From Planktothricoides raciborskii GIHE-MW2 (GTDB lineage Bacteria; Cyanobacteriota; Cyanobacteriia; Cyanobacteriales; Laspinemataceae), in the NCBI RefSeq assembly GCF_040564635.1, contig NZ_CP159837.1:419801-483800 (forward strand): a stretch of 64,000 nucleotides of DNA, written 5' to 3'. Every line of letters starts with the position of its first letter. Positions within the stretch are counted from its first letter, which is position 1. Below are positions 33,935 to 64,000 of this stretch, piece after piece. The notes beneath the pieces were generated by a model, which ran no database searches, was not told the DNA's origin, and saw only the letters and a list, made by a program, of their open reading frames with translations. A program made the position numbers and the translations under genes.

Positions 33935-34580
33935 CAGCGGTTTTCTTTCTTAGTGAACCACCCTAGGGCGAAGCCCAAGCGGTATTTAATTTATTATTGT
34001 AGGGGCGAATGGCCATTCGCCCCTACACTGCCGGAATGCTTCGCCCCTACAGGTATTTGTGGTTTATTCAGCAGAAAATTGCTGTAAGGCCACGTTGCTT
34101 TGTTCTACCTTACCAGAGGAAAGAGAATACAGGAAAGAGAATAGAGTAAGGAAGGCATTGCCATCCCTGTGGTTGTTGTAGGGGCGCAATGCTTGCGCCC
34201 TTGAACCCTGGGAAAACGCCCTAAGTTGGGGGCGGGCGCTTGTAGGGCCTCTTCCGTGGCAGTGGTTGCCCCGATCGCCCGTGGTCGCCCCGCGCCCCTA
34301 CCCTGTCAGTGGGTCAGTCCTACAGCAATTTTCTGTAGAGTAAACCACAAATTTTTGTAGGGGCGAAGCATTCCGGCAGACAAATTATTGCTGAAAAGAT
34401 TAAATGTACGGGCCCGCGCATTCCGTAGGGGCGAATGGCCATTCGCCCTTGTACGGGCGAATGGCCATTCGCCCCAGAAGATGCTTAGAATATTAGATGG
34501 ACTACCGGAATGCTTCGCCCCTACGGAATGCGCGGGACCTACCCTGGTTCAGTAAGAAAGAAAACCGCTGTAATTTATTT
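33935..34580. repeat. Nested MITE cluster of the GTAGGGGCGAATGGCCATTCGCCCCTAC hairpin family
   Basis: Several hairpin copies, and units bounded by TTACAGCGGTTTTC...GCTGTAA. One unit spans about 33940-34080 and a larger composite spans about 34310-34580. Confidence 0.75.
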
Positions 34581-37500
34581 TTGTGATATTGGGGGCAAGA
34601 TGGAACATTGGGGAGATTCCCGTAAGGGATCCGCTTCGCGGAATCGCTCCCAAGGACTTCCTGAATTAACATTAGCGGCTTGGGCGATTAATTTCACCGA
34701 ACCATCGGCATCAACTGTCCATCCAGTTGCTTCTACAATCCGTTGATTGTCGATCGCCTCTGACGGTTCAATTGATGCGGAATAATTAGCCCGGTCATCA
34801 ATCCGTGGATCGATCCAAACTGTATCGCTACCCAGCCATGCATCAGGGTTTGGAGGCAATCCCCCCCGACCGATGACATAGAAACTACTGCCAGCAGAGG
34901 CATCACAAGTATCAGCAATTAAATTACTCAGTGAAATCACATTATTTTCTAATGCAACTAACCCTGATGCGGGGTCAACATCAGGGGTATTTAACTTAAC
35001 GGTGCCGCTAAATTCTGCCCCTAAATCCGAGGAAGCGGTGATATCGCTAAAGGGAGTATTAATATCTCGAAAATCCGTGCCAAAAATACCGTTAGCATTA
35101 ATCACAATTCGCCCGCCAAAACTTTGTTCTGCATTGGCAGAAATATCACTATTTTCTAGAGCAATTAAATTATCATTATTCAGAGTAATATTACCGCCAG
35201 TTGCTTCCCCAAAAGCGCTGGCGGTAATATTACTGTTATTTCTTAATTGAATATCTCCCGACGAAATAAATATATTCCCGCGATCGCCCGCAGCGGCAGT
35301 AGTGCTAATAATCCCTTGATTATCTAACAGAATTTCTCTGGCGGTAATTTCCACATTTCCCGCCGGACCTTTTCCCGGAGACAATGGGGCGTAACTGGCA
35401 AAATTACTGGCAGAAATTGCCGCGCGATCGCGGATAATTAACTGGTTCGTATTGAGAATCACATCCCCGCCCTTGCCGGTGCCGCTGCCATCTTCCGTTT
35501 CATCAAAAGCACTAGCAAATAACCCACTGCTGCCATTTTCTGATACACCAATTAATTCAATTAATTTGGCTCGGACAATCACATCTCCGGCATTACCCGA
35601 TCCACTGGTATTGGCAGTAAATTGACTCCCATCGGTTAAAGTCAATGACCCACCTGTTTCTATGGTAATTGTCCCTGCATTGCCATTAGCAAAAGTGCTA
35701 GAAGCCACAAAACCCGGATCGGATTCTACGGGATCTAAGCCAGTCATTTCAATAGATTCTGAAGCTTTTAAAGTGACATTTCCTGCATGACCTGACCCAA
35801 AGGTACTACTTTCGATTTTGCCGCCATTAGCAAACACTAACCGCCCGGTTTCAATTAAAATATCTCCCGCATTGGCACTGCCACCTTCTAAATAAGCGTT
35901 GGTACGCAAGCGACTGGCAGATCCTTCTAGGTCGGCGCCGATGATTTCCACAAAGTCCGAAGTTTGCACGGTAATCGAACCGCTATTCGCTGGGGCATCA
36001 CTTTTGGCGGTGCTGAGAATCCGACCCCCATCCCGTAAACTCAAGCCTCTAGCGGTAATATTCACATTTCCCCCATTGCCGGTACTGCCTTCGAGGGCTT
36101 CACTTCTAATCACGCTAAATCGGCCCACGTCATTGACCCCAAAAGCTTCTACCGTATCGGTGGCGTTAATCGTCACATCTCCGGCATTTCCGGCACCAAA
36201 GGTGGAAGTATTCAGAATGCCTTCATTTTCCAGGGTGAGTTTTCCCGTATTAAAAATTAAATTTCCCGCATTCCCCGTCCCGCGAGTAATGCTGGAAACT
36301 TCCGCATCTTTAATTGCCACAATATCTCTGGCATTGACCAGTAAATTGCCGCCCCGTCCCATATCCAAGGCATTAATAGAAATGTCGGCGCGATCGGAGA
36401 CAATTAATTTCCCCGTATTAATCGTAATATTGCCCCCCGATCCAATGCCACCGGACTCGGAAAATAAACCACTATTCGCCCCTCGGTTAGGATTAAAGTT
36501 ATCGGGATTAATCATAGTTTCCGCCACGGTGACAGCTTCGCTGCCTCGGTTTTGTAAGGAAACTTGTAAGGTATAAGTATCACCTACATCTAACCTATTG
36601 CCACTAATCGGCGATCCGGTAGCGGCAAAAGAATCTAATTCCGCCACTCCCAGCAGATAAATTCCCGGTTGGTCAAAGGTGACGTTTAAATAAGCATCAT
36701 GTTGTTCGCTGCTACCCCCCGCCCCACTGGTCGTCGGGGAATCATCATTGGTATAGAGTAAGTGTGCCGTGGCTAAGTTATATAAAAATATCTGAGTTTC
36801 TACATCTCCGGGGCCAGATTTTTTGGCGGCATCAATATCAAATATGCCTTGAGAATTAGCTTGAGTAATAGAAAATTTATAATAATCAAATGATTCTGTA
36901 GGGTCAGCAAGTACCGTTGTCCCGGCGATGATTTGTGCGGGAGTTCGCTGAATTGAGGTATAAGGAATACCATTAGATCCAGATGCTTCTACATCAGGAT
37001 TCGGTTGGGTGATAAATTCTAATAGGTTTAAATCAAATGCGGAAATCTTCGCCAAAGGATTGGGGAGAAAATTTGGGCTGCTGCCAGACAACTGGACGCT
37101 TTCGGTGGCATTAATTGTAATATCTCCGGCATTTCCGGGGGCAGTGGTGGCGGTGATAATTTGCCCCCCAGTTGCGATCGCGAGATTATTTACATTAATC
37201 TGAATTTGTCCGCCATTGTTCGGACTGTTGGTGACGGCAGCGATAAAGCCTCGGTTGGCTAAGGTGACATTTCCCGCAGGATTATTAATGATAATATTGC
37301 CCCCGGTTCCTGCGGTTTCTGTTTTGGATAAAATGCCGCTAAATAGTCCATCTGGAGTAAATCCAGAAATGTCGATCGCCCCAGTAGCATTAATCGCAAT
37401 ATCCCCCGCTTTGCCGTTTTGGTTAATGGTACTTTGGATGCGACTGCCCCCAGTGACGGTTAAATTGCCTACATCAATATTGATACCTTGATTGATACCA

Positions 37501-38279
37501 GAAACATTAATTAAACTGCGATTTCCTAGAGTAATATTTCCCCTGGTTATTTCTGGGGAAATTTGCCCTAAACCCAAGGCGGAATTTAACGGAACTTCGC
37601 CATTATTTCCTAGAGAAGCGATCGCAATTTGGCCATCGCTGGCCAAAAGTTGCCCCCCATTGAGGTTCACATCACCACCCACCAGGGTTAAACTTTGTCC
37701 GGGGTTGACCTGTAGGGTTGAACCTTGCAAGGTGAGTGACCCCGGACTGGTGGCAAATTGCAATCCTATGGGTAGATTAATGGTTAATAATGGCGCATCA
37801 TTTTTTTGAGTGGCACTAAAAAAATTACCATTGTTAAAATTTATCTGCTGCGCGGTAGAGGCGATAAAAGATCCGCCAATGGCTAATTGAGCATTTCGCC
37901 CAAACAAAATCCCATTCGGATTGAGTAAAAATAAGTTAGCGTTGCCGTTGGCTTTAACTATGCCATCAATATTAGAAACATTGTCCCCTGTCACTCGACT
38001 AAAGATATTTTCAATTGTTAAATAATTGTTAAAAAAAGCTTCCGTCCCCGTAGGCACAGAAAAGTCCTGAAAACTATGAAATAAACTGTCACCAGTGGTG
38101 GTTCCCCCTTCGATTTTGATGGTATTTCCTTCGGGTATGGCTACAGAATTATTTCGCAAGCTGCGATCGGGGATAATTTGGGCGTTGGTGGGAATACTAT
38201 AAAGTGTTTGTCCGAGCAAAACCACGGCCAAACTTTCGATAATTAATTGTGCGGGTAAACCCGGAAATTTTTTCTTCAT
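34575..38279 (-). CDS. Large exoprotein with an N-terminal two-partner-secretion (filamentous hemagglutinin / TpsA) domain and beta-helical repeats
   Basis: Signal peptide, then the TPS domain 'NTIKIEGGTTTGDSLFHSFQDFSVPTGTEAFFNN...IVKANGNANLFLLNPNGILFGRNAQL'. Long runs of GNxxI-type repeats follow, which also generate many spurious antisense ORFs. 1234 aa. Confidence 0.8.
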   Translation of the reverse strand: MKKKFPGLPAQLIIESLAVVLLGQTLYSIPTNAQIIPDRSLRNNSVAIPEGNTIKIEGGTTTGDSLFHSFQDFSVPTGTEAFFNNYLTIENIFSRVTGDNVSNIDGIVKANGNANLFLLNPNGILFGRNAQLAIGGSFIASTAQQINFNNGNFFSATQKNDAPLLTINLPIGLQFATSPGSLTLQGSTLQVNPGQSLTLVGGDVNLNGGQLLASDGQIAIASLGNNGEVPLNSALGLGQISPEITRGNITLGNRSLINVSGINQGINIDVGNLTVTGGSRIQSTINQNGKAGDIAINATGAIDISGFTPDGLFSGILSKTETAGTGGNIIINNPAGNVTLANRGFIAAVTNSPNNGGQIQINVNNLAIATGGQIITATTAPGNAGDITINATESVQLSGSSPNFLPNPLAKISAFDLNLLEFITQPNPDVEASGSNGIPYTSIQRTPAQIIAGTTVLADPTESFDYYKFSITQANSQGIFDIDAAKKSGPGDVETQIFLYNLATAHLLYTNDDSPTTSGAGGSSEQHDAYLNVTFDQPGIYLLGVAELDSFAATGSPISGNRLDVGDTYTLQVSLQNRGSEAVTVAETMINPDNFNPNRGANSGLFSESGGIGSGGNITINTGKLIVSDRADISINALDMGRGGNLLVNARDIVAIKDAEVSSITRGTGNAGNLIFNTGKLTLENEGILNTSTFGAGNAGDVTINATDTVEAFGVNDVGRFSVIRSEALEGSTGNGGNVNITARGLSLRDGGRILSTAKSDAPANSGSITVQTSDFVEIIGADLEGSASRLRTNAYLEGGSANAGDILIETGRLVFANGGKIESSTFGSGHAGNVTLKASESIEMTGLDPVESDPGFVASSTFANGNAGTITIETGGSLTLTDGSQFTANTSGSGNAGDVIVRAKLIELIGVSENGSSGLFASAFDETEDGSGTGKGGDVILNTNQLIIRDRAAISASNFASYAPLSPGKGPAGNVEITAREILLDNQGIISTTAAAGDRGNIFISSGDIQLRNNSNITASAFGEATGGNITLNNDNLIALENSDISANAEQSFGGRIVINANGIFGTDFRDINTPFSDITASSDLGAEFSGTVKLNTPDVDPASGLVALENNVISLSNLIADTCDASAGSSFYVIGRGGLPPNPDAWLGSDTVWIDPRIDDRANYSASIEPSEAIDNQRIVEATGWTVDADGSVKLIAQAANVNSGSPWERFREADPLRESPQCSILPPISQK

Positions 38280-39102: not shown

Positions 39103-39486
39103 GTGTTTTTCCTGAAAAATCGTCCTGATGATGCTGAGATCGCGGAAATTTATGCCGCGATCGGTCGCCTTGTTATCCGATTTCCATTGCTCCACTGTGA
39201 GGAATGCGCTCGCACCCTCACAGTATGGCTTAAACAACGTGGAATCCCAGGAAAAATTTGGCGACTCTCGACTCGATCCGATTATGAAGACTTTATTCTC
39301 AGCGAACGACTAGAAAAAATCGGTTGTACGGAAACTATTACGGAAAATGGCGTTCATTATGGAGTCGAAGTGTTTGGCAAAATCTTTGATAATCTTTCTA
39401 CAGAGGGACTTTTGCCCGATGATTGGATTAAAGATTTTACCTCATTATCTAATGAATTTGATGTTGAAGTGATTTCGGAGTTTTAG
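39103..39486 (+). CDS. Hypothetical protein, possibly a papain-fold (Cys/His) toxin-like domain
   Basis: 127 aa. A conserved-looking 'HCEECARTLTVWL' and 'HYGVEVFGKIFDN' could form a Cys-His dyad. The family call is speculative. Confidence 0.3.
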   Translation: MFFLKNRPDDAEIAEIYAAIGRLVIRFPLLHCEECARTLTVWLKQRGIPGKIWRLSTRSDYEDFILSERLEKIGCTETITENGVHYGVEVFGKIFDNLSTEGLLPDDWIKDFTSLSNEFDVEVISEF

Positions 39487-39502: not shown

Positions 39503-39901
39503 ATGGAAAAAAAGATGAGTACATTATTTAATCTACTGGATAAAATCAAGATAAAACCGGCACTTTACCTGGGAACGAGTTCGATTACTCATTTAAGAAT
39601 GTTCATTCTTGGCTATCGATTTGCTCGGTCAGAAATGGGCATTACTAACACGGAAGCAGAAAGTGACTTTTACAAAAACTTTCAACCCTGGCTGCAAAAT
39701 CGCTTATCCATTCATACGGTTAATGGGTGGGATAAAATTATTTTGCTGACCTGTATCGACGAAAAAGCAGCTTTTGATTATTTCTTTAACCTGTTAGATG
39801 AGTTTCTCCAGCGCGATCGCAGCCAAACGATCGATCCAATTCTCGTCGAATCTGCCTCAAAAGATGCCAATTTTGTAGGGGCAAAGCATTCGCTCCGATA
39901 A
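39503..39901 (+). CDS. Hypothetical protein, candidate immunity partner of the preceding ORF
   Basis: 132 aa, starting 17 bp downstream of 39103..39486. No family recognised. Confidence 0.3.
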   Translation: MEKKMSTLFNLLDKIKIKPALYLGTSSITHLRMFILGYRFARSEMGITNTEAESDFYKNFQPWLQNRLSIHTVNGWDKIILLTCIDEKAAFDYFFNLLDEFLQRDRSQTIDPILVESASKDANFVGAKHSLR

Positions 39902-46592: not shown

Positions 46593-47627
46593 ATGATGAC
46601 TCTGAAAGATTGCATAAATCCATTAACACTCCAGGGCAACCCGTTAAGTGTGGCGCCGATGATGGATTATACCGATCGCCATTTTCGCTATTTTATGCGG
46701 CAGATTACCCGTCGGACGCTGTTATATACGGAGATGGTGACGACCGCAGCGATTATTCACGGCGATCGCCCCCGACTGTTGGGTTTTTCTCCAGAGGAAA
46801 AGCCCGTATCCCTGCAACTGGGGGGGGACGATCCGCAGGAGTTGGCGGAATGCGTTCGCATTGGGACGGATTTTGGCTATGACGAGATTAATTTAAATGT
46901 CGGTTGTCCCAGCAGTCGGGTGCAAAATGGCAATTTTGGGGCTTGTTTGATGGCCCAACCAGACCGAGTTGCCCGGGCAGTGGAGGCTATGCAGCAAGCG
47001 ACCCATTTGCCGATTACGGTAAAACATCGGATTGGGATTGACGATCGCGATCGCTATGAGGATATGGCGAATTTTGTCCGGGTTGTTTCTGGGGCTGGGT
47101 GTCAGCGGTTTACCGTTCATGCCCGCAAAGCCTGGTTACAAGGGTTAAGTCCCAAGGAAAATCGCGATGTTCCGCCGTTGCGTTACGGTGATGTGTATCG
47201 TTTAAAGCAAGATTTTCCCCATTTGTTTGTGGAAATTAACGGCGGTGTGACTACTTTGGCCGAGGTTAAAGCACATTTGCAGTTGGTGGATGGGGTGATG
47301 ATTGGTCGGGCAGCTTACGATCGCCCTTATTTGTTTGCGGAATGCGATCGGGAGATTTATGGGGAAAATACTACGCCCCTGACGCGGCATCAAGTGGTTG
47401 AAGCCATGCTGCCTTATATTGAGTATTGGCTGAGTCAAGGGTTGAGTTTAAATAAGATGAGCCGACATTTGTTGTTATTGTTTAATGGACAACCGGGGAG
47501 TCGTGTTTGGAAACGATATCTGAGTGAAAATGCTCATGTTCCTGGGGCGGGAGTTGAGGTGATTCTGGCGGCTTTAGCCCAAGTTCCTCCCCCAGAGATG
47601 GCCGGTTTAACGGTATCAAATATTTGA
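46593..47627 (+). CDS. dusA: tRNA-dihydrouridine(20/20a) synthase DusA
   Basis: Strong similarity to E. coli DusA along the whole length: 'LSVAPMMDYTDRHFRYFMR...LLYTEMVTT.AIIHG', 'YDEINLNVGCPS.RVQNG.FGACLM', 'VKHRIGIDD', 'HARKAWLQGLSPKENR..PPL.Y', 'YLSENAH'. Confidence 0.9.
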   Translation: MMTLKDCINPLTLQGNPLSVAPMMDYTDRHFRYFMRQITRRTLLYTEMVTTAAIIHGDRPRLLGFSPEEKPVSLQLGGDDPQELAECVRIGTDFGYDEINLNVGCPSSRVQNGNFGACLMAQPDRVARAVEAMQQATHLPITVKHRIGIDDRDRYEDMANFVRVVSGAGCQRFTVHARKAWLQGLSPKENRDVPPLRYGDVYRLKQDFPHLFVEINGGVTTLAEVKAHLQLVDGVMIGRAAYDRPYLFAECDREIYGENTTPLTRHQVVEAMLPYIEYWLSQGLSLNKMSRHLLLLFNGQPGSRVWKRYLSENAHVPGAGVEVILAALAQVPPPEMAGLTVSNI

Positions 47628-47892
47628 CAACGGTCTGAATCGGCTAGGTTATGGGGATGGGTGCTTATCGGTTTTGCGGTTGGTTATGGGCGGGGTATAA
47701 TAGAGGTTGACCCGCAATCTGCGTCAGGGGATATTTGCGCGGAGGGGTGGGTGTAAAAACAGGGCAGGGCATTTTTTCCTCTGAACTGTTTATGGGGTCG
47801 AGGTTTGAGAGTTTTTGAGTCTCGAACCGATCCGCGCAAATCCTGAAATCCTTTGTGAGTCAGGGTTTTGGTTTATTCAGGTTTGAGGTCTG

Positions 47893-47923
47893 TTGACAAA
47901 TTTGGGGGGTTGCATGGTATGAT
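47893..47923 (+). promoter_or_regulatory. Candidate sigma70-type promoter in the CRISPR leader (TTGACA, 19 nt, TGgTATGAT extended -10)
   Basis: ttgacaaatttggggggttgcatggtatgat lies about 65 bp upstream of the first repeat and is oriented towards the array. The spacing is long, so this is tentative. Confidence 0.3.
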
Positions 47924-47986
47924 GAAGTCGATTCGCGCAAATGAACCTGGAAAATTAAATAAATCAAGGGTTCCGAGCCCCGGCCT

Positions 47987-50900
47987 GTTGCAACTATATT
48001 GAATCCCTATTAGGGATTGAAACGCTTAACCCGCTTACTTTGGGCGTAAGTATCCCAGTGGTTGCAACTATATTGAATCCCTATTAGGGATTGAAACTTG
48101 GCTTCTGGTAGCAGCGGGGTGTCGGTCGCGGGCGGTTGCAACTATATTGAATCCCTATTAGGGATTGAAACGCAACCCTAGATTAGCTTGTAAGTCGTAA
48201 TTGCTGTTGCAACTATATTGAATCCCTATTAGGGATTGAAACAAGGCGCAAATTGATGCAATTTGTCTTGAAAACTGGTGTTGCAACTATATTGAATCCC
48301 TATTAGGGATTGAAACCACCACCCGAACCGAAAACGGACGGACGCTGACCAAGCTGTTGCAACTATATTGAATCCCTATTAGGGATTGAAACTTCCGGGT
48401 TGCGATCGCGCTTCTCTTAATAGCGGAAAGTTGCAACTATATTGAATCCCTATTAGGGATTGAAACTGGCAGGTAAGCAATACCCGCTACACCGGCCACC
48501 TTAAGTTGCAACTATATTGAATCCCTATTAGGGATTGAAACAACAAACAGTAAACTATTTACGGCTTCTGAAAAAGTGGTTGCAACTATATTGAATCCCT
48601 ATTAGGGATTGAAACAAGCTTATAGGGATGCCAATGATGAATTTGAAGGCATAATGTTGCAACTATATTGAATCCCTATTAGGGATTGAAACCAACAAAT
48701 GACCAATTCATCAGGTGTGCAGATATGAGTTGCAACTATATTGAATCCCTATTAGGGATTGAAACTAAAATATATAGATTTTAGAATGGATCCAGCTTGC
48801 CTGTTGCAACTATATTGAATCCCTATTAGGGATTGAAACGTTTGGGGTGTGGGATGCGGTGAATCTGCCAAACGTTGCAACTATATTGAATCCCTATTAG
48901 GGATTGAAACAGTTGCCGGGCCTCTGAGGGTGAAACCGACGGCCTGATGGCGGTTTGTTGCAACTATATTGAATCCCTATTAGGGATTGAAACAGTTGCC
49001 GGTAAATTTTGAGAATTTCCAGGCAATGTTGCAACTATATTGAATCCCTATTAGGGATTGAAACGACAGCAAAATTTCTGGGATATGCTTGATAAAGTAG
49101 AGTTGCAACTATATTGAATCCCTATTAGGGATTGAAACTTCTAACCGATTGAGAACCGAATAAACCGATTTAATGTTGCAACTATATTGAATCCCTATTA
49201 GGGATTGAAACTTGTAAATTTCTTTCTTTCTTTTTCCCCTAAAAAAATGTTGCAACTATATTGAATCCCTATTAGGGATTGAAACTTAGCTAGTAAGAAA
49301 TCAGGCAAAAATAAACCAGAGAGTTGCAACTATATTGAATCCCTATTAGGGATTGAAACAGATACTGAGAGTGAGGGTCGGTTGCTGAAAGGTGTGTTGC
49401 AACTATATTGAATCCCTATTAGGGATTGAAACCAAAATGAACTTAACCAGTCTGGCTGCCTTCTCATGTTGCAACTATATTGAATCCCTATTAGGGATTG
49501 AAACTAGGGCTGACGAACGATCAAAAACTTTGGCTGACTCGTTGCAACTATATTGAATCCCTATTAGGGATTGAAACGTTATGCGGCAAACTGCTTAAAA
49601 TAGCTTTGGCCAAACGACTCGTTGCAACTATATTGAATCCCTATTAGGGATTGAAACGTTATGCGGATCCAGAATTACCAGGGATTCTGGTTGAGTTGCA
49701 ACTATATTGAATCCCTATTAGGGATTGAAACTGATGCGGCTTGTTGACTTGATTTATTGGTAGCAAGTGTTGCAACTATATTGAATCCCTATTAGGGATT
49801 GAAACTTCAGACAACATAAAGCCTCGGTCACGCCAGACTCCGTGTTGCAACTATATTGAATCCCTATTAGGGATTGAAACTGGGAATACGATCGCCCGGC
49901 TCCGACTCCGGCATGGTGTTGCAACTATATTGAATCCCTATTAGGGATTGAAACGATAGATAGGAAAATGTTGACCAAAAACTTCAACAAAGTGTTGCAA
50001 CTATATTGAATCCCTATTAGGGATTGAAACGCTGCGGCCCAAACACCCCCGCGCTTGGTGGCGATGTTGCAACTATATTGAATCCCTATTAGGGATTGAA
50101 ACCCTGAGTTGCAGCGTTTATCAGTCGAAAATTATGGTTGCAACTATATTGAATCCCTATTAGGGATTGAAACTCGCCAAAAACAAAAACCCCGACGCCT
50201 TACGGCATCGGGTTGCAACTATATTGAATCCCTATTAGGGATTGAAACTTAAACTATCACTTAACTGCTGACTTTTTTCCTTTGTTGCAACTATATTGAA
50301 TCCCTATTAGGGATTGAAACAGCAACCACGCCGTTGCCGTAATGTTGAGAAGCGGTATGTTGCAACTATATTGAATCCCTATTAGGGATTGAAACCTCGA
50401 ATTGCAGCACCGCGAAGCTGCAAATCATGTTGCAACTATATTGAATCCCTATTAGGGATTGAAACCGTTGCCGACGCGGGTAGTGGACTTCAAGGGTAAG
50501 CAGGTTGCAACTATATTGAATCCCTATTAGGGATTGAAACTTTTTTGAGCGATCGCACCCGACCTCCTACACCCCCAGTTGCAACTATATTGAATCCCTA
50601 TTAGGGATTGAAACGGCTTTCATTTCATACACCCCCAAAAATTGCAGCGATGTTGCAACTATATTGAATCCCTATTAGGGATTGAAACGATGCTGTGGCA
50701 ACCAATCAGCCCAGAAACCGGGGAAAAGTTGCAACTATATTGAATCCCTATTAGGGATTGAAACAATTGGATTACGATCATCAAAAATAAAGGCTATTTT
50801 AGTTGCAACTATATTGAATCCCTATTAGGGATTGAAACGGGGGGTGGAGCCCAGGAACCCAGCAATGGGATTCAGGAGAGTAATGTTGCAACTATATTGA

Positions 50901-53900
50901 ATCCCTATTAGGGATTGAAACGACAGTTTGGCTGACATACTGTTAGTATAATGCGTTGCAACTATATTGAATCCCTATTAGGGATTGAAACGGCAATGTA
51001 CAATCTGAGAATATTACCATATAAGAATGGTTGCAACTATATTGAATCCCTATTAGGGATTGAAACTGAGTCTCCACTGAGTTTTTTATTGGGAACCGAG
51101 ACAGTTGCAACTATATTGAATCCCTATTAGGGATTGAAACCTGTTCGGTGGAGATTGAACGAAGTTATGGCAAGAGTTGCAACTATATTGAATCCCTATT
51201 AGGGATTGAAACAGAGCGATCGCTGAAATCCGACCCGCTACTGCCTCACTAGAAAGTTGCAACTATATTGAATCCCTATTAGGGATTGAAACTTGTAGTG
51301 ACTGGCTGGAGACTTGCACTGATTGAGTTGCAACTATATTGAATCCCTATTAGGGATTGAAACACTTCCAGATACGGGCATCTTAGGTGATCAATTCCGG
51401 TTGCAACTATATTGAATCCCTATTAGGGATTGAAACCTTTGCATTGCCGGATCGTCCGTCTAGCCACGGCAAAGTTGCAACTATATTGAATCCCTATTAG
51501 GGATTGAAACAAGGCGCTCATTCATACCTTCGGCCCTTTCTCTCATTGTTGCAACTATATTGAATCCCTATTAGGGATTGAAACCGAGTTACTTGCTACC
51601 GTCCGTTACCACCGTTTGGTGGTTGCAACTATATTGAATCCCTATTAGGGATTGAAACCGATCCAGGGTGTCGGTTTGGCAATCATAAAGCTAGGTTGCA
51701 ACTATATTGAATCCCTATTAGGGATTGAAACAATTTCGTCTGCCATCGGTGCCAGATTTTGTAGGGCTGGTTGCAACTATATTGAATCCCTATTAGGGAT
51801 TGAAACGAAGGGATGGTTCTATGAGGCTACAAATTAACGAGTTGCAACTATATTGAATCCCTATTAGGGATTGAAACAGCCACGTTAGCACGCTTAAAAT
51901 CTGCTTACCTGATAGGTTGCAACTATATTGAATCCCTATTAGGGATTGAAACCAGTACAGGCATTGACATCTCAGGCATCTATCAAAGTTGCAACTATAT
52001 TGAATCCCTATTAGGGATTGAAACCTTGAGGCTCACTATCCGACGCGCCAACGGTCGGGTTGCAACTATATTGAATCCCTATTAGGGATTGAAACGGGGA
52101 GATCGCTCTGGCACCTTGACCACCCCCGACGGCGTTGCAACTATATTGAATCCCTATTAGGGATTGAAACGGCAAGTATCGCGGGCGATTCTGCACTCAA
52201 GAAAGCGAGTTGCAACTATATTGAATCCCTATTAGGGATTGAAACAATGCCTGTACTGCCATAGGTGAAATCCCATCGCCGTCACAGTAAGTAATGATGG
52301 ATCCGCTAATTGAAACAATGCCTGTACTGCCATAGGTGAAATCCCCACAGATCGCCGTTGCAACTATATTGAATCCCTATTAGGGATTGAAACGAATTGG
52401 GTCACTATATCTTGGTGGGAAATGCCAGTTGCAACTATATTGAATCCCTATTAGGGATTGAAACATACCTTCAATTTCAGCGATCTTAACGGCAAGTGCG
52501 TTGCAACTATATTGAATCCCTATTAGGGATTGAAACATTAACGTCCCAGCAAATTAGCTATTTGCTGGGACAAGTGTTGCAACTATATTGAATCCCTATT
52601 AGGGATTGAAACTACAGCATTCCCATCATCGTCAAAGTCAAGCCCATAGGTTGCAACTATATTGAATCCCTATTAGGGATTGAAACAGAATTGCCACCTC
52701 CTAGGTCTAAAATGCCATTGATTGTTGCAACTATATTGAATCCCTATTAGGGATTGAAACCGGGGGGTGGGTTTTGGGCTGATTCTGAACCCTGAACGTT
52801 GCAACTATATTGAATCCCTATTAGGGATTGAAACTAAAATTTTGGAACTAACAAAGTTGGAATGAGAAAAAGTTGCAACTATATTGAATCCCTATTAGGG
52901 ATTGAAACCGGTTAATATTCACGGTTTACACCCCCCCTAAAATTGGTTGCAACTATATTGAATCCCTATTAGGGATTGAAACACAGATGACCCTCGATCA
53001 ACTAAATCACCTGGTGGCAGGTTGCAACTATATTGAATCCCTATTAGGGATTGAAACCTGTAGCCCGTGTCAGCGAATCTGCCAAGATTACGTTGCAACT
53101 ATATTGAATCCCTATTAGGGATTGAAACACTGGCTTGAGTGGAAATAAAGGGACTACCCTTAATTGTTGCAACTATATTGAATCCCTATTAGGGATTGAA
53201 ACCAGTCCCGCGTAAACCGTGGGAAACAATGGCATTGGGTTGCAACTATATTGAATCCCTATTAGGGATTGAAACAACAAAAAGTAAGCTGTTCACTGCC
53301 TCTGAAGTGTTGCAACTATATTGAATCCCTATTAGGGATTGAAACGCTAAAAGCTTTGGCTTTGCAAATAGTAGGGCTGCTCGTTGCAACTATATTGAAT
53401 CCCTATTAGGGATTGAAACCAATTAATGCTTAAAGATCCTAAATCGATTTTTTCGTTGCAACTATATTGAATCCCTATTAGGGATTGAAACACGCACAAA
53501 ACAGGCGCAAAGAAGCAAGCGGGCGAGGGGTTGCAACTATATTGAATCCCTATTAGGGATTGAAACATTATTTTTTCTACTTATATCAAATCTTTTGATG
53601 ATGTTGCAACTATATTGAATCCCTATTAGGGATTGAAACTCCTACTCAGAAGAGATGAACACACCGGATCCGAGCGTTGCAACTATATTGAATCCCTATT
53701 AGGGATTGAAACTAAAAAAGAAGTATTGCAAATAGGACACCCTATGGTTGCAACTATATTGAATCCCTATTAGGGATTGAAACAACTCTTTTTGTTGATG
53801 AGGCGATCACAAGCCACCGTTGCAACTATATTGAATCCCTATTAGGGATTGAAACGCTCCACAAATTCACCGCTGCGGTGCCAATCTCCTGGTTGCAACT

Positions 53901-56900
53901 ATATTGAATCCCTATTAGGGATTGAAACCGCTAAATTTAGCGGACGATGGGTGGACAACCATCGAGTTGCAACTATATTGAATCCCTATTAGGGATTGAA
54001 ACGGGATTTTCTGATTTTAAAATCAAATTCAAAAAAATGTTGCAACTATATTGAATCCCTATTAGGGATTGAAACAACTTGCATTCCTTCAAAATTAGTA
54101 ATTTTATATTGTTGCAACTATATTGAATCCCTATTAGGGATTGAAACTATACCAGGAACTCATGAATTTATTGAAAATGTTACTGTTGCAACTATATTGA
54201 ATCCCTATTAGGGATTGAAACAATCCCATAGATTTATCGCCGCGATCGCCACCCTGCGTTGCAACTATATTGAATCCCTATTAGGGATTGAAACGGGGAA
54301 GGAAAAACCTATATTCAGGCACCCAAAATGTTGCAACTATATTGAATCCCTATTAGGGATTGAAACCGACAAGAAAACTGGTGAAATCGACAAAAAAGCC
54401 GGTTGCAACTATATTGAATCCCTATTAGGGATTGAAACGGGTTTATCAGATGCAAAAGAGAACCATTTTTCTGTTGCAACTATATTGAATCCCTATTAGG
54501 GATTGAAACCACCTATAGCCGGGGGACGAGTAGCGGAAGAGCCAAAGTTGCAACTATATTGAATCCCTATTAGGGATTGAAACTTGGACATTGGCGGCGG
54601 TAACTCTACAGGGTGTCTGTGTTGCAACTATATTGAATCCCTATTAGGGATTGAAACCGGGGTGATTGTATCCGGGCATTTTGTATAAGCGGTCGTTGCA
54701 ACTATATTGAATCCCTATTAGGGATTGAAACCTTAGATTTTCTGGAACTGTGGGGACTTAGAAAATCAGTTGCAACTATATTGAATCCCTATTAGGGATT
54801 GAAACACGGCAGCAGCAATGATTCCGCTAAGGCTAATGTGCGTTGCAACTATATTGAATCCCTATTAGGGATTGAAACCCTTTTTGATGTTTTTTGCCGC
54901 ATACTTAACGTTAAAGTTGCAACTATATTGAATCCCTATTAGGGATTGAAACGGGGCTACCTCTCACCGAGCCTCACCGAAAATTCCTCGTTGCAACTAT
55001 ATTGAATCCCTATTAGGGATTGAAACAGAAACATTTTCCCATTGCGATTGATTAAAGGTAAATGTTGCAACTATATTGAATCCCTATTAGGGATTGAAAC
55101 TATTCAAGATTACTTGGATTATAAAATCAAACAAGAAGTTGCAACTATATTGAATCCCTATTAGGGATTGAAACATCCCCTGCTGACAACCGGGGCCGCA
55201 GTAAGTCACAAGCGAGTTGCAACTATATTGAATCCCTATTAGGGATTGAAACTGGACTTTTGGCTAAAAACGACCAGACGGCCGCACAGGTTGCAACTAT
55301 ATTGAATCCCTATTAGGGATTGAAACGGCAATCTGTGATTTGTGATGGGAGTATTAAACCAAGTTGCAACTATATTGAATCCCTATTAGGGATTGAAACT
55401 AGATAATTGATAGCTAACTCTGATTTACCGCTGCCCCGTTGCAACTATATTGAATCCCTATTAGGGATTGAAACTAAAGTTGCGATCGCCATAACAGAAA
55501 GTCCCTGATTCGTTGCAACTATATTGAATCCCTATTAGGGATTGAAACCCATTGCTTATAGTCCTTAAAATAGTTTGTCAACGTTGCAACTATATTGAAT
55601 CCCTATTAGGGATTGAAACTAGCAACCGATTCTGGTAAACCTGAAAGTAGATTTGTGTTGCAACTATATTGAATCCCTATTAGGGATTGAAACGTAATTG
55701 ACAAAAAGTAAGCTATTCACGGCTTCTGAAGTTGCAACTATATTGAATCCCTATTAGGGATTGAAACTTTTGTTTTGGATTTAGCCTTTAGCCGCCTCTA
55801 GCAGTTGCAACTATATTGAATCCCTATTAGGGATTGAAACAATGCCGTGTTGCGTTGTTGATTAACGCGGGTAATGAGTTGCAACTATATTGAATCCCTA
55901 TTAGGGATTGAAACGTAATTGACAAAAAGTAAGCTATTCACGGCTTCTGAAAAAGGTTGCAACTATATTGAATCCCTATTAGGGATTGAAACATACAAAA
56001 TGCAACAACCCCCCTAGACTTTCGGCTAGGTTGCAACTATATTGAATCCCTATTAGGGATTGAAACTTGAGCAATTACCTTTGCCCCCATCGCCAATTCA
56101 GGGTTGCAACTATATTGAATCCCTATTAGGGATTGAAACTCTAAGTTTGCTGACAGCGCTATAACTTAGCCCGCTTCGTTGCAACTATATTGAATCCCTA
56201 TTAGGGATTGAAACGATAGCAGGATGGCTTGACGAGTGGGCAATTTTCGGTGTTGCAACTATATTGAATCCCTATTAGGGATTGAAACAAGACGCGATCG
56301 CCGCAAAAAGGGACTAGCTAACCCCCGTTGCAACTATATTGAATCCCTATTAGGGATTGAAACACAAGCCTCACTTGGATCCGCTAATTCTGCGATATGA
56401 GATGGGAGTTGCAACTATATTGAATCCCTATTAGGGATTGAAACCAACTGATCCATCCGCAGTCTCAGGCCGGTGATCACTGTTGCAACTATATTGAATC
56501 CCTATTAGGGATTGAAACAACGACACTGAACAACAAACCATCACCCTGATTTTCAGGTTGCAACTATATTGAATCCCTATTAGGGATTGAAACGACAAAA
56601 AGCAAGCTATTGACCGCTTCTGAGAAACGTTGCAACTATATTGAATCCCTATTAGGGATTGAAACCGGATGGACCCTAAATCAAGAACAACGCCGGATCC
56701 TCGTTGCAACTATATTGAATCCCTATTAGGGATTGAAACAGTGCGATCGCCACCTTCATAACTGATGGCGTCAGCAGTTGCAACTATATTGAATCCCTAT
56801 TAGGGATTGAAACGCCCCCCGACAAAGACAAAAATTGCTGGTTGCAGGCCGTTGCAACTATATTGAATCCCTATTAGGGATTGAAACTAAAAGTTTCTTT

Positions 56901-59900
56901 GGCGGGCTTCGCCAATACAAAGCAGTTGCAACTATATTGAATCCCTATTAGGGATTGAAACCATTTATCGAGGTAAAAATGAAACGAAAAAATATCAAGT
57001 TGCAACTATATTGAATCCCTATTAGGGATTGAAACGAACAAGTCAAAGTTGAAGCCGAAAAGATAGGCCAATGTTGCAACTATATTGAATCCCTATTAGG
57101 GATTGAAACGGGAAGAACGGGCGACCAGTAAGGATCGAATCCGAGTTGCAACTATATTGAATCCCTATTAGGGATTGAAACCTCTGCCAATTTTCGAGAT
57201 GCACTAAAGCTAGGAGTTGCAACTATATTGAATCCCTATTAGGGATTGAAACGGCGATCGCGAGTTCGATCAACTTGATTAATTCGTGTTGCAACTATAT
57301 TGAATCCCTATTAGGGATTGAAACAGACTCCCAGGGGCGGATGAATGTGGACTTCATTCGTTGCAACTATATTGAATCCCTATTAGGGATTGAAACATCC
57401 ATTGATTGATTATGACTACCAAGTTAATGAGTGTTTCAGTTGCAACTATATTGAATCCCTATTAGGGATTGAAACGATACTTTTACATTGCCAATTAATC
57501 GCATCATAGTTGTTGCAACTATATTGAATCCCTATTAGGGATTGAAACGTTCTGCTCCAAGGTGAAGTCGTAGGAGCCGGGGGGAGACTCATCGTTGCAA
57601 CTATATTGAATCCCTATTAGGGATTGAAACATTGTTGCGATCGCTCCACCAAGCAAAAATTCAGCAGGTTGCAACTATATTGAATCCCTATTAGGGATTG
57701 AAACGGCTGCTCCCAAGGAAAATAATTCTCATAGTCAAAGTTGCAACTATATTGAATCCCTATTAGGGATTGAAACAACGCATTAAATTTAACGAATTTC
57801 TGATTAATAATTGTTGCAACTATATTGAATCCCTATTAGGGATTGAAACAAAACAAATCACCAGAATTTTGCTCAAACATCTGGTTGCAACTATATTGAA
57901 TCCCTATTAGGGATTGAAACACCAGAACCTAATACTTTAGATCTAAAACTAATCATGTTGCAACTATATTGAATCCCTATTAGGGATTGAAACTCTTTTT
58001 CCGTTTTTAGTTTTTGGCATCTTTTTGTTGCAACTATATTGAATCCCTATTAGGGATTGAAACAAGGCGTGTAACCACCACTTCACTTACTTGCTGCGAT
58101 CGTTGCAACTATATTGAATCCCTATTAGGGATTGAAACAGCAGGAGTCGAGCGAGCTTTAGAGTCTAGCGGATGTTGCAACTATATTGAATCCCTATTAG
58201 GGATTGAAACAACTTACGAACCTACCGCTTGCAAGATTACTTTTACAGTTGCAACTATATTGAATCCCTATTAGGGATTGAAACACTCTTGCGATCGCTC
58301 CACCAAGCAAAAATTCAGCAGGGTTGCAACTATATTGAATCCCTATTAGGGATTGAAACTCGTAGGTCTTGTTCCAGAACTTCTGGAGCTAGTAGTTGCA
58401 ACTATATTGAATCCCTATTAGGGATTGAAACATAATATCTTCTCTCCTTAATTAATTCTCTACCTTGTTGCAACTATATTGAATCCCTATTAGGGATTGA
58501 AACGCGAAGGACAATCGGACTAAGTATTATCTATATAAGAGTTGCAACTATATTGAATCCCTATTAGGGATTGAAACGCCTTTTTCTCCCTTTTCTCCTT
58601 TTTCTCCTTTTTGTTGCAACTATATTGAATCCCTATTAGGGATTGAAACTTCTACTAAAACAAACCCTACTGCTGATTTCCAGAGTTGCAACTATATTGA
58701 ATCCCTATTAGGGATTGAAACAACCAAAGCTGCACTGGCAGTAGTAGCACCAGTCGTTGCAACTATATTGAATCCCTATTAGGGATTGAAACGGGGCGAT
58801 TATGAAAACATGGGTATTGCTGTAATGTTGCAACTATATTGAATCCCTATTAGGGATTGAAACTCAAAAATCATATAGCCAGTATTCAGAGTGGATAAAG
58901 TTGCAACTATATTGAATCCCTATTAGGGATTGAAACAGTGAATAGCTGTCTGTCTATGGCAGAAAAGGTGCGTGTTGCAACTATATTGAATCCCTATTAG
59001 GGATTGAAACCTACCCCCCATCCCCCCTAGTGTGGTCTCATGCGATGTTGCAACTATATTGAATCCCTATTAGGGATTGAAACTTGATAGTGAAACCATT
59101 CCTCATAAAATGAACTACGGGTTGCAACTATATTGAATCCCTATTAGGGATTGAAACTTGATAGTGAAACCATTCCTCATAAAATGAACTACGGGGTTGC
59201 AACTATATTGAATCCCTATTAGGGATTGAAACAACTCGACGGTAGCCGTGCCACCGGCTTGAGAAGATTGTTGCAACTATATTGAATCCCTATTAGGGAT
59301 TGAAACCGGTTTTTCTCCGCTCGCTTGCGGCGCTAGGCTACGGGTTGCAACTATATTGAATCCCTATTAGGGATTGAAACGCTTCTACTGTGGATCAGAT
59401 CGTAGCGGGGGCTACTGTTGCAACTATATTGAATCCCTATTAGGGATTGAAACGGGCTTTATAATCTGCCCAGAAATCCTTCCAGAGGTTGCAACTATAT
59501 TGAATCCCTATTAGGGATTGAAACCGCCTGGTTTTGCGCTTGGCACTGGTATCCGCACGTTGCAACTATATTGAATCCCTATTAGGGATTGAAACCTCTC
59601 TCATCTGTTTTTGCTTCATTTTATAGTATTCAGGTTGCAACTATATTGAATCCCTATTAGGGATTGAAACGGGGAAATCCTTTGGGGACAGACCGAATGG
59701 GAAGACGTTGCAACTATATTGAATCCCTATTAGGGATTGAAACTCTACAACAAAATCTAGATGGCCTTTGCCACAGGGTGTTGCAACTATATTGAATCCC
59801 TATTAGGGATTGAAACCATAAGTGTCTATGGATGTCTTGGCCTAATTCTTTGTTGCAACTATATTGAATCCCTATTAGGGATTGAAACTGTTCATCGCGG

Positions 59901-62900
59901 GCAACCTCGTCTCTGGCCTTGAAAAGTTGCAACTATATTGAATCCCTATTAGGGATTGAAACCTAAACTTTCAATCTCAACTTTACGGGAGATAAGAGGG
60001 TTGCAACTATATTGAATCCCTATTAGGGATTGAAACGCAGTTGGGCCGAAGTCGAGGGACTTTTAGGATTCACGTTGCAACTATATTGAATCCCTATTAG
60101 GGATTGAAACTTTGGGGTGAAATCAGACCTAGATTCATTAGCTTTAGTGTTGCAACTATATTGAATCCCTATTAGGGATTGAAACATTAAGCCCGTGCCG
60201 AGGCTGATAGATATCATCCAAAATGTTGCAACTATATTGAATCCCTATTAGGGATTGAAACATTGCGATCGCACCCAAGGGGGGGGGTGATCGTGGGTGT
60301 TGCAACTATATTGAATCCCTATTAGGGATTGAAACGACAAATGCAGCGGGCACTGATAGGATGTAATTGCGATGTTGCAACTATATTGAATCCCTATTAG
60401 GGATTGAAACGACTAAAAAGACAACTGAAAATAAATGAGGAAAATGTTGCAACTATATTGAATCCCTATTAGGGATTGAAACCCTCTGTATAGATCGCGA
60501 AAAGATAGAAAGTTTCTGTGTTGCAACTATATTGAATCCCTATTAGGGATTGAAACAAATTCGCTAGTCGTACGCAAGTACGCGAAAGCTTAGTTGCAAC
60601 TATATTGAATCCCTATTAGGGATTGAAACAAGTTCTTGATGATGCTCCAGTTTTTTATTGCCATTTTGTTGCAACTATATTGAATCCCTATTAGGGATTG
60701 AAACTACGGATTAAACCTTTGAAGGAAAATATCAAGCTTTTGCGGTTGCAACTATATTGAATCCCTATTAGGGATTGAAACGGAACACACCCACAATGGC
60801 TCAACAAACATATTTTGGTTGCAACTATATTGAATCCCTATTAGGGATTGAAACCTCTGGTTTATATATATAATTCTAGCGACCTGGTTGTTGCAACTAT
60901 ATTGAATCCCTATTAGGGATTGAAACACGGATTAAGCCACTCAAAGAAAATATCAAGCTTTTGGTTGCAACTATATTGAATCCCTATTAGGGATTGAAAC
61001 AGCGATCGCATCCGCATCCACATCCGAGGTCGGGGTCGGTTGCAACTATATTGAATCCCTATTAGGGATTGAAACATCGTATCCCCGTCTGAAATGCGAT
61101 CAACTTGCCACGTTGCAACTATATTGAATCCCTATTAGGGATTGAAACCCAGATGGGGTTGACTGCGATCGATTCAGCGGCGGCGGTTGCAACTATATTG
61201 AATCCCTATTAGGGATTGAAACAAGTGGGCCGGGGGTGGGTGGGTGGGCGTGTTGGTTTTGTTGCAACTATATTGAATCCCTATTAGGGATTGAAACGAT
61301 TTTCTCCTGATTTTGGTGTTTGCGGTGAGTATTGTTGCAACTATATTGAATCCCTATTAGGGATTGAAACAAGTGGGCCGGGGGGCGGGCGGGTGGGCGC
61401 GTTGGTTGCAACTATATTGAATCCCTATTAGGGATTGAAACACCGCCGACGATTACCCCGGCCTATACCGCAATGGAAAGTTGCAACTATATTGAATCCC
61501 TATTAGGGATTGAAACTCAAATACTTATCGAGGTTTGGTCGGAAATGAATAGTGGTTGCAACTATATTGAATCCCTATTAGGGATTGAAACCAAGGTGAA
61601 GCGATCGCCATTCCGGGATAAAACATGGGTTGCAACTATATTGAATCCCTATTAGGGATTGAAACTGGAAATCTTGATCGGAGAGGGTAGCCGGTGCTAT
61701 GCCGTTGCAACTATATTGAATCCCTATTAGGGATTGAAACGTCAAACTTAGCGCTGATGCGGGTTTTAAAGTTTTTTGGTTGCAACTATATTGAATCCCT
61801 ATTAGGGATTGAAACTTTGCGATTTAAGCGGGGTGAGGCTGAAAAGCTTGTTGCAACTATATTGAATCCCTATTAGGGATTGAAACAGGGTAAAGCGATC
61901 GCCATTCCGACTAAGAACATGGCGGTTGCAACTATATTGAATCCCTATTAGGGATTGAAACTTGGGTATTTCCGACAAAAGGGAAAAATTAAAAGTCGGG
62001 TTGCAACTATATTGAATCCCTATTAGGGATTGAAACGCGATTTGAACGCGCGATCGAGGGCTTATGAGGCTTTTGTTGCAACTATATTGAATCCCTATTA
62101 GGGATTGAAACGGATTAAATCTTGTTGGGGCAGCGACTCCAGAATGTTGCAACTATATTGAATCCCTATTAGGGATTGAAACACACTCTAACCAAGTGCA
62201 AAAAAGTGCAGGGCAAGCGTTGCAACTATATTGAATCCCTATTAGGGATTGAAACCTCGGGCTAATGAAAGTAAAACTATTTATGTTTCCAGTTGCAACT
62301 ATATTGAATCCCTATTAGGGATTGAAACGATTAAGAGTTAGAGAATTTGCTTGCAAGTTGGCTGTGGTTGCAACTATATTGAATCCCTATTAGGGATTGA
62401 AACCGCAGCATTTCCAGGGATATTCCCAGATATTTGAGCGGTTGCAACTATATTGAATCCCTATTAGGGATTGAAACACATTTTGCATAATTTTTTCACC
62501 AATTATCTTACATAGTTGCAACTATATTGAATCCCTATTAGGGATTGAAACAAGTCCGACGGGGGTTGTTCAAGACCCGATTACAAAAGTTGCAACTATA
62601 TTGAATCCCTATTAGGGATTGAAACGGAAACAGATTTTTTGTCGAATATCCCCAGCAAATGTTGCAACTATATTGAATCCCTATTAGGGATTGAAACGTA
62701 AGAGGTCTGATGGGTGCAGCCGCAGGTGCCGCGTTGCAACTATATTGAATCCCTATTAGGGATTGAAACGTAATCAAAGGTGATTCCAGCAAAGAATCTT
62801 ATTGGTTGCAACTATATTGAATCCCTATTAGGGATTGAAACGATTCTGGGTAAGCAGTCCCAACAACCATAAAGCTAGGGTTGCAACTATATTGAATCCC

Positions 62901-64000
62901 TATTAGGGATTGAAACGCTTGGAAAGCAGGGAAGCAATGCCCCACATCCGCGAGTTGCAACTATATTGAATCCCTATTAGGGATTGAAACCAGCCGAACC
63001 ACTGGTGAGGCAATCCTCCGGCAAGTTGCAACTATATTGAATCCCTATTAGGGATTGAAACAACCACCTTCGCGGATGTGGGGCATTGCTTCCCTGCTTT
63101 CCAGTTGCAACTATATTGAATCCCTATTAGGGATTGAAACATCTCGGTTACAAACCACTCTAATTTTGATGTTTTGTTGCAACTATATTGAATCCCTATT
63201 AGGGATTGAAACTTTCCCGTGCCTGTGGGGGGGGATAGCAATACAAAAGTTGCAACTATATTGAATCCCTATTAGGGATTGAAACGTAAAATGGTCGTTT
63301 TTTGCGGGTAAGTATTGATCGAGTTGCAACTATATTGAATCCCTATTAGGGATTGAAACATATAAGAATTCGGAAGTGCTGGTGCCATTGAATTCATCAA
63401 GTTGCAACTATATTGAATCCCTATTAGGGATTGAAACCTCTACATCTTTGGGTGGGTAGTAGTCTCCTCGCGGTTGCAACTATATTGAATCCCTATTAGG
63501 GATTGAAACTTAATGACTCAATCTCAGATTCTAGGGATTGAATGTTGCAACTATATTGAATCCCTATTAGGGATTGAAACCATTTCCGATTGCTCCCGAA
63601 CCTTGACAAGTATTGTTGCAACTATATTGAATCCCTATTAGGGATTGAAACGCCTTCCGTGCGGATAACTATTACTTTGTACCCAGTTGCAACTATATTG
63701 AATCCCTATTAGGGATTGAAACCGGATTCTTATCGCGATCAGCCAGCGGGCTACAGTTAGTTGCAACTATATTGAATCCCTATTAGGGATTGAAACGCTC
63801 TCTGCTTTCCGATTGAGCGATTCTTCGGAGACGACGGAGTTGCAACTATATTGAATCCCTATTAGGGATTGAAACTTCCTATTGATTGCTACTTATTTTT
63901 GATTTAGTCTATGTTGCAACTATATTGAATCCCTATTAGGGATTGAAACCAGGACTTTGGATTCTCAGCAGTGTAGGAGTGATAGAGTTGCAACTATATT
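47987..64000 (+). CRISPR. CRISPR array of about 218 repeat-spacer units. Repeat 37 bp GTTGCAACTATATTGAATCCCTATTAGGGATTGAAAC, spacers about 33-45 bp. The array continues beyond the window end.
   Basis: The repeat is perfectly conserved from the first copy at 47987 to the truncated copy at 63976-64000. It has an internal palindrome AATCCCTA..TAGGGATT and a 3' ATTGAAAC, the typical 5'-handle precursor of Cas6-processed crRNAs. This orients transcription on the + strand, with the leader on the dusA side. No cas genes lie within the window. Confidence 0.98.

Follow-up and report, generated by a model that had tools for sequence, protein, structure and literature searches.

Two spacers of a very long CRISPR array, with a single spacer between them, are reverse complements of each other over 34 nt, and the question that this locus raises is how such a pair came about. 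It could stem from one kind of captured fragment inserted in both orientations, from two captures off opposite strands of one invader or, as the initial annotation held, from primed or interference-driven adaptation, of which it took the pair to be a hallmark. We address this question in the stretch of DNA that contains the pair (64,000 nucleotides, referred to here as the window) and in four related loci (L007-L010).

Parsing the array against its 37-nt repeat places spacer 202 at 62917-62953, spacer 203 at 62991-63024 and spacer 204 at 63062-63103, with repeats 5′ of spacer 202 (62880-62916), between successive spacers (62954-62990 and 63025-63061) and 3′ of spacer 204 (63104-63140), all on the + strand. 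Spacer 202 (37 nt) consists of GCT followed by the 34-nt core, spacer 204 (42 nt) of AACCACCT followed by the reverse complement of the core, and spacer 203 is 34 nt long. The initial annotation had the 37-letter string of the first spacer right while closing it one position too low, at 62952; for the second it gave the correct start and ended at 63104, a G with which the next repeat already begins. Its placement of the two spacers one unit apart was accurate, with only spacer 203 intervening.

An inverted-match search recovers the two arms on the + strand, arm A at 62920-62953 (TGGAAAGCAGGGAAGCAATGCCCCACATCCGCGA) and arm B at 63070-63103, which are 100% complementary over 34 nt across an inter-arm gap of 116 nt. 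A 34-nt inverted match is absent from 100 of 100 dinucleotide-preserving shuffles, and the runner-up antisense match in an all-versus-all comparison of the 215 spacers in both orientations (about 23,000 pairs) spans only 14 nt. The exact match reported earlier therefore holds, and a recount directed at a shorter or low-complexity overlap again returned 34 nt that are not of low complexity. The complementary spacer pair is real and statistically unambiguous. Three trivial origins were considered and rejected: low complexity, a palindrome, and self-targeting, the window's only copies of the core being spacers 202 and 204 themselves.

The overlap stops exactly at the 3′ end of spacer 202 and exactly at the 3′ end of spacer 204, as is required of partly overlapping intervals on opposite strands. 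The ends that are not shared are GCT (3 nt), found only in spacer 202, and AACCACCT (8 nt), found only in spacer 204, such that the two spacers together rebuild a target of 45 nt that reads GCT, the 34-nt core and AGGTGGTT. Spacer 203 is as rich in GC as its neighbours (0.62, against 0.59 and 0.57), a likeness expected by chance in 17% of cases. Taken alone, a pair of this kind is the ordinary outcome of strand-blind spacer capture, and the phenomenon is already of a known kind.

The array that holds the pair occupies 47987-64000 on the + strand and continues past the window end. Its 37-nt repeat (GTTGCAACTATATTGAATCCCTATTAGGGATTGAAAC) is present in 216 copies, at least, since the array leaves the window, and all 216 are identical without a single mismatch. 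The repeat is a member of Rfam family CRISPR-DR5 on the + strand (48.5 bits against a gathering score of 40) and has the form expected of a Cas6-type repeat, with an AATCCC/GGGATT stem and a 3′ 8-nt handle, ATTGAAAC. The 215 spacers range from 33 to 46 nt with a mode of 37, a variable length of the sort that characterizes type I-D (about 33-40 nt). Upstream of the first repeat lies a leader (47628-47986, + strand), roughly 280 nt of which can be aligned with the leader located behind cas2 in L007, and directly 5′ of the leader is the gene for a dihydrouridine synthase, Dus (46593-47627). An identical Dus protein turned up on short Logan contigs only (SRR27753952, SRR29644585, SRR31564085, SRR29729369 and SRR27753938), taken here as samples that contain the strain. 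A promoter-like element that would direct transcription into the array can be read at 47893-47923 (+ strand) as TTGACA, 19 nt and TGGTATGAT, an extended -10. The element is conserved across the five related leaders of the window and L007-L010; a consensus promoter scanner was silent on it because of the 19-nt spacing. The leader also carries the motif CGCGCAAAT twice and, farther upstream, an inverted copy, TTTGCGCG. With at least 216 identical repeats that begin just after Dus and its leader, this is an exceptionally long stand-alone array.

No cas genes were found in the window, including the 48 kb upstream of the array, and linkage to cas10d/csc3, csc2 or csc1 is thus absent from it; the assignment to a subtype accordingly rests on homology of the repeat and leader. 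The exact repeat was not found in species-representative genomes and occurs on one metagenome contig, L007 (FWWL01000791.1), in an array of 35 unrelated spacers. There, cas2 is followed by a leader homologous to window positions 47628-47986 and then by the array. The closest relatives of the L007 Cas2 (98% identity) are carried by L008, L009 and L010 at the ends of operons ordered cas3′, cas10d, csc2, csc1, cas6, cas4, cas1, cas2, which are again followed by a leader homologous to that of the window and by an array whose repeat differs from the window repeat by 2-5 nt. NCBIfam equivalog models confirm Cas10d/Csc3 (990 bits), Csc2, Csc1 and Cas1d in the related operons. From this homology we infer that the window array is a new and very large stand-alone array of a type I-D system. 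An origin in a type III or RT-Cas1 system was rejected, since none of the four related loci links genes of either kind to this family of repeats and leaders; a type III system encoded at another place in the genome may share the array. Around the closest plasmid match to the repeat, in Calothrix NIES-22, no cas genes are annotated.

The HIP1-rich sequence and the genes for ChlH, GUN4 and an orange carotenoid protein identify the DNA as cyanobacterial. With SRP54, PhoH, a radical SAM enzyme and a TPS-domain exoprotein as well, the remaining gene content of the window is that of an ordinary cyanobacterial chromosome. A TPS secretion domain protein of 1234 aa (34575-38279, - strand) lies near an open reading frame for a Tox-PL-2 papain-fold toxin (39103-39486, +), and the small open reading frame that follows the latter (39503-39901, +), which has no family match, could be its immunity gene. 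A NB-ARC/STAND NTPase (25104-26495, +) and a KAP-like P-loop NTPase (6288-8306, -) could also be defence-related.

The order of the two captures follows from the polarity of the array. The end of a CRISPR array nearest the leader is its newer end. The leader lies upstream on the + strand, the 8-nt handle sits at the 3′ end of the repeat, and degenerate terminal repeats mark the leader-distal end in L007 and L008; together these place spacer 204 as older than spacer 203 and spacer 203 as older than spacer 202, the younger of the pair. Because new spacers enter at the leader, the acquisitions would have proceeded from 204 through 203 to 202.

With 216 identical repeats, the order of spacers can be fragile in short-read data, and near-duplicates such as spacers 150/151 and 104/107 could be collapsed variants from different strains, so that in a 16-kb array mis-assembled or merged from strains the proximity of the pair would not be real. 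However, spacers are unique anchors and their order is normally resolvable, neither Ns nor broken repeats point to a join, and the complementarity is in any case independent of spacer order. We regard an artefact of assembly or rearrangement as the most improbable of the explanations considered here.

Do the two spacers stem from one capture or from two? In type I-E of E. coli complementary pairs arise pervasively by flipping (PMC4027179), and the overlap here is nearly complete, covering 34 of the 37 nt of spacer 202, so one could imagine a single kind of prespacer integrated both ways, with one of the resulting spacers mis-oriented and non-functional. Yet neither end coincides, the offsets being 3 and 8 nt, whereas flipping should leave the same boundaries. 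Moreover, a flipped PAM-adjacent prespacer should precede NAC, the complement of the GTN PAM, and the 3′ flanks that can be read from the partner spacer are AGG and AGC; among all convergent antisense pairs, NAC occurs in none of the seven readable 3′ flanks. Orientation is, in addition, enforced in Cas4 systems (PMC10212523). The offset ends and the non-NAC flanks indicate distinct prespacers rather than one inserted in two orientations, and we consider a flipped pair very unlikely. With spacer 203 intervening as well, the earlier proposal that both strands of one segment were sampled in two separate acquisition events is borne out.

Comparison of related spacers bears on how each capture was positioned. 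We compared all 400 spacers of the window (W) and L007-L010 against one another and found 34 related pairs, 24 in the same sense and 10 antisense. In the same-sense pairs the 5′ ends are common, with an offset of 0 or ±1, while the 3′ ends differ by 0-5 nt, a register consistent with 5′ ends fixed by a PAM and distal ends that are ragged. The 5′ flank can be read in nine cases, of which five are GTN (GTC, GTT, GTG, GTT and GTT) where 1/16 is expected by chance; the others are ATT (twice), TGG and AGG. This enrichment, read from overlapping spacers and not from targets, matches the type I-D PAM (PMC10212523, PMC5896167). Type I-D systems use a GTN PAM and degrade their targets bidirectionally (PMC10212523), GTN is selected by Cas4, and spacer length varies (PMC5896167). 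Within the array, the entry counted as spacer 58 (52246-52356) is 111 nt long and comprises two spacers, their first 29 nt identical, on either side of a repeat that is both degenerate and shortened (...GGATCCGCTAATTGAAAC). Their common 5′ end is reverse-complementary to the first 13 nt of spacer 54 (51953-51987), which gives spacer 58 a PAM of GTC.

These observations lead us to the following model for the pair. Spacers 204 and 202 would be independently captured, overlapping protospacers from opposite strands of one invader stretch of 45 bp or longer, integrated by the type I-D Cas4-Cas1-Cas2 module into its stand-alone array. Each would owe its 5′ position to a GTN PAM of its own immediately beyond the 45-bp segment, and the predicted target, provided that both spacers are correctly oriented, is 5′-GTN-GCTTGGAAAGCAGGGAAGCAATGCCCCACATCCGCGAAGGTGGTT-NAC-3′ (GCTTGG...GGTGGTT). 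In this convergent geometry each end of the segment would carry the PAM and seed of one spacer, and escape from both guides would need two independent mutations. We think it very probable that the pair reflects two independent opposite-strand captures by the type I-D system.

That both spacers come from a single locus is part of this model, and they have no common flank that would prove it: GCT is present on one side only and AGGTGGTT on the other only. Both could have been taken from the same strand at two loci if the invader carried a long inverted repeat, such as transposon ends or an inverted gene duplication. But perfect inverted repeats of at least 34 nt are rare, whereas every locus has two strands, and three more antisense overlaps between strains would each call for an inverted repeat of their own. 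Such an origin strikes us as highly improbable, and we favor a single locus sampled on both strands.

The between-strain overlaps in question are W55/L010_27 (31-33 nt), W45/L010_21 (27 nt) and W56/L010_68 (20 nt). Divergent overlaps of 13 nt, 5′ end to 5′ end, link W54 with W58 and W28 with L010_84. In this lineage, both strands of one site have thus been sampled recurrently. The same site was also sampled in the same register in different strains, as in W104/L010_34, W59/L010_56, W115/L010_119 and W48/L010_15, and spacer 10 of L008 aligns with the site of spacer 202 at an offset of -1 with a score of 17, above all 100 shuffles, which makes it a probable variant of that site. Independent sampling of the same sites by related strains points to hot spots at the level of the site, or to selection for few sites, and the segment matched by our pair probably belongs to a set of strongly preferred protospacers.

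Several further spacers are related to one another. Diverged variants of one site are found in six of them, five in the window (48542-48578, 53276-53308, 55694-55730, 55915-55955 and 56594-56628) and one in L010 (spacer 34), in two 5′ registers that lie 6 nt apart. Nine of the 13 variable columns fall in one codon phase, and this site is therefore probably in a conserved coding gene. The W104 variant has ATT rather than GTN upstream of the inner register and could be a PAM escape. Spacers 150 and 151 (59084-59195) are neighbours that differ by a single additional G at the 3′ end, through either re-acquisition of the same site or duplication followed by an indel. Spacers 179 (61223-61260) and 181 (61371-61404), two units apart, are G-rich variants of one site, GGGTGGGTGGG and GGGCGGGCGGG.

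Was the capture of spacer 202 promoted by spacer 204? Priming is established for types I-B, I-C, I-E and I-F, and not for type I-D. To our knowledge, engagement of a matched target by Cascade stimulates acquisition in every type I subtype tested so far. The array offers an older spacer of the appropriate kind, since spacer 204, leader-distal to spacer 202, matches the same 34 nt perfectly. However, a 2023 review of type I-D systems states that there are “currently no data on priming by type I-D systems” and priming by them has never been shown (PMC10212523). Naive type I-D adaptation has no strand bias (PMC5896167), and antisense pairs consequently need no priming. With naive capture indifferent to strand and hot spots shared among strains, the status of the pair as a hallmark of primed or interference-driven adaptation, claimed for it at the outset, is not established.

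A better argument for bursts or priming lies in the tight clustering of related spacers and not in their strand relation. The window array contains eight families of related spacers whose members are 1-9 units apart within 216 units (permutation p<1e-5). The clustering is equally significant when spacers 202 and 204 are left out (p<1e-5), and a random pair would be at most two units apart with a probability of 1.8%. Hot spots shared between strains are another potential cause of such clustering. Along the array, neighbouring spacers show no autocorrelation in GC content (lag 1, p=0.30), and bursts in which one invader supplied several spacers thus leave no general trace.

This evidence has to be weighed against naive re-sampling of an intrinsic hot spot, in which the same short region of a recurrent invader is chosen again and again, by a strand-neutral Cas4-Cas1-Cas2 complex or through selection for few effective sites, and spacer 204 plays no part in the capture of spacer 202. 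Such re-sampling would account for the use of the same 5′ register by independent strains and for their antisense overlaps (W55/L010_27, W45/L010_21 and W56/L010_68), for the probable variant of the spacer 202 site in L008 and for the lack of GC autocorrelation along the array, and it agrees with the lack of strand bias in naive type I-D adaptation (PMC5896167). But related spacers sit much too close together in the array for sampling that is independent of time (p<1e-5), and a target to which spacer 204 was a perfect match of 34 nt or more is one that, by analogy, a type I Cascade should engage. We find naive re-sampling rather unlikely.

Instead, we suggest that Cascade loaded with crRNA 204 acted on the same DNA and in this way most likely promoted the second capture, which followed the first by two acquisition events, and that spacer 202 would represent interference-driven or primed acquisition fed by bidirectional type I-D degradation. 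Capture of this type is, to our mind, the most likely cause of the closeness in time of the pair, although we infer it tentatively and with slightly less than even confidence. A broader conjecture, about which we are more doubtful, is that this natural array records primed, bidirectional type I-D adaptation, with crRNA 204 driving an overlapping opposite-strand capture two events later and the other clustered, 5′-anchored re-samplings reflecting the same process against escape mutants. As for the explanation as a whole, in which opposite-strand captures, the type I-D module, GTN anchoring, a hot site and a capture promoted by crRNA 204 are combined, we consider it somewhat more probable than otherwise.

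The initial annotation had suggested that the protospacer and its PAM be identified on both strands. That search yielded no target in IMG/VR, metagenome contigs, species-representative genomes or phage and plasmid records, and hence neither PAM could be read. More specifically, the exact 34-mer had no match in IMG/VR, the 45-mer none in metagenome contigs, and a degenerate central 24-mer none in species-representative genomes or IMG/VR, while the 45-mer, compared by blastn with phage and plasmid records, gave chance matches only (E>=2). Five other protospacers sampled by several spacers or strains were likewise without a match in IMG/VR, and a search among roughly 400 spacers for dovetail overlaps of at least 6 nt that would extend the 45-mer found none. 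Both halves of the array, compared by blastn with phages and plasmids, matched from repeat to repeat only (Nostoc, Calothrix and Microcystis plasmids; cyanophages N1, YongM, MaMV and LMM01). These negative searches indicate that the invaders recorded in the array are not represented in accessible collections. The cyanophage matches are to the repeat family, in Nostoc phages YongM (MT426122.1) and N1 (KU234532.1) and Microcystis phages MaMV and LMM01, with no spacer matched, and may reflect phage-borne arrays or solitary repeats.

It had also been proposed that the two crRNAs would be complementary to each other, and as thermodynamics, and in that respect only, this is correct: the guide parts of spacers 202 and 204 alone are predicted to pair at -73.3 kcal/mol. 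Folded as RNA, positions 62880-63140 (261 nt) have a predicted minimum free energy of -139.9 kcal/mol, compared with -65 ± 4.5 for shuffles (z = -16.7), and the predicted structure is dominated by the helix between the two spacers. The first 8 nt of the repeat form a palindrome, GTTGCAAC, and in the predicted pre-crRNA fold neighbouring repeats pair and the 202/204 helix is lengthened. Cas6 cleavage and Cascade loading would compete with this predicted duplex, and we regard a 34-bp crRNA:crRNA or pre-crRNA duplex as a curiosity.

The wider interest of the locus lies in the array-wide pattern, in which sites are re-sampled from an anchored 5′ end, related spacers cluster in acquisition order and the opposite strand is captured now and then. 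Priming by type I-D systems, along with its possible bidirectionality, is explicitly an open question (PMC10212523), and arrays such as this one, together with target genomes, could address it from field data.

Three known systems provide points of comparison. The flipped pairs of E. coli type I-E (Shmakov et al. 2014, PMC4027179) likewise consist of reverse-complement spacers from one protospacer region. However, they have the same boundaries both ways and are found across a cell population, whereas our two spacers sit in one array and are offset at their ends by 3 and 8 nt; furthermore, the system here is a Cas4-containing type I-D with variable spacer length and 3′ flanks that are not PAM complements. 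The second point of comparison is the strand-independent, bidirectional priming of type I-F (Richter et al. 2014, PMC4117759) together with interference-driven acquisition (Staals et al. 2016, cited in PMC10212523): there too, an older and a newer spacer derive from one target, on opposite strands and near each other, and related spacers are close neighbours in the array. Unlike in either of these processes, re-sampling here is largely of the same site, which priming alone does not predict. The third, the type I-D adaptation of Synechocystis (Kieper et al. 2018, PMC5896167; 2019, PMC6607411), shares the Cas4-Cas1-Cas2 module, a 5′ GTN PAM, variable spacer length, the lack of strand bias and integration at the first repeat under the direction of a conserved leader. 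The spacer mode there is 35 nt, compared with 37 nt here, and those studies followed naive acquisition in E. coli, whereas the array described here is a natural, very long, stand-alone one with 216 units or more and a cas operon located beyond the window.
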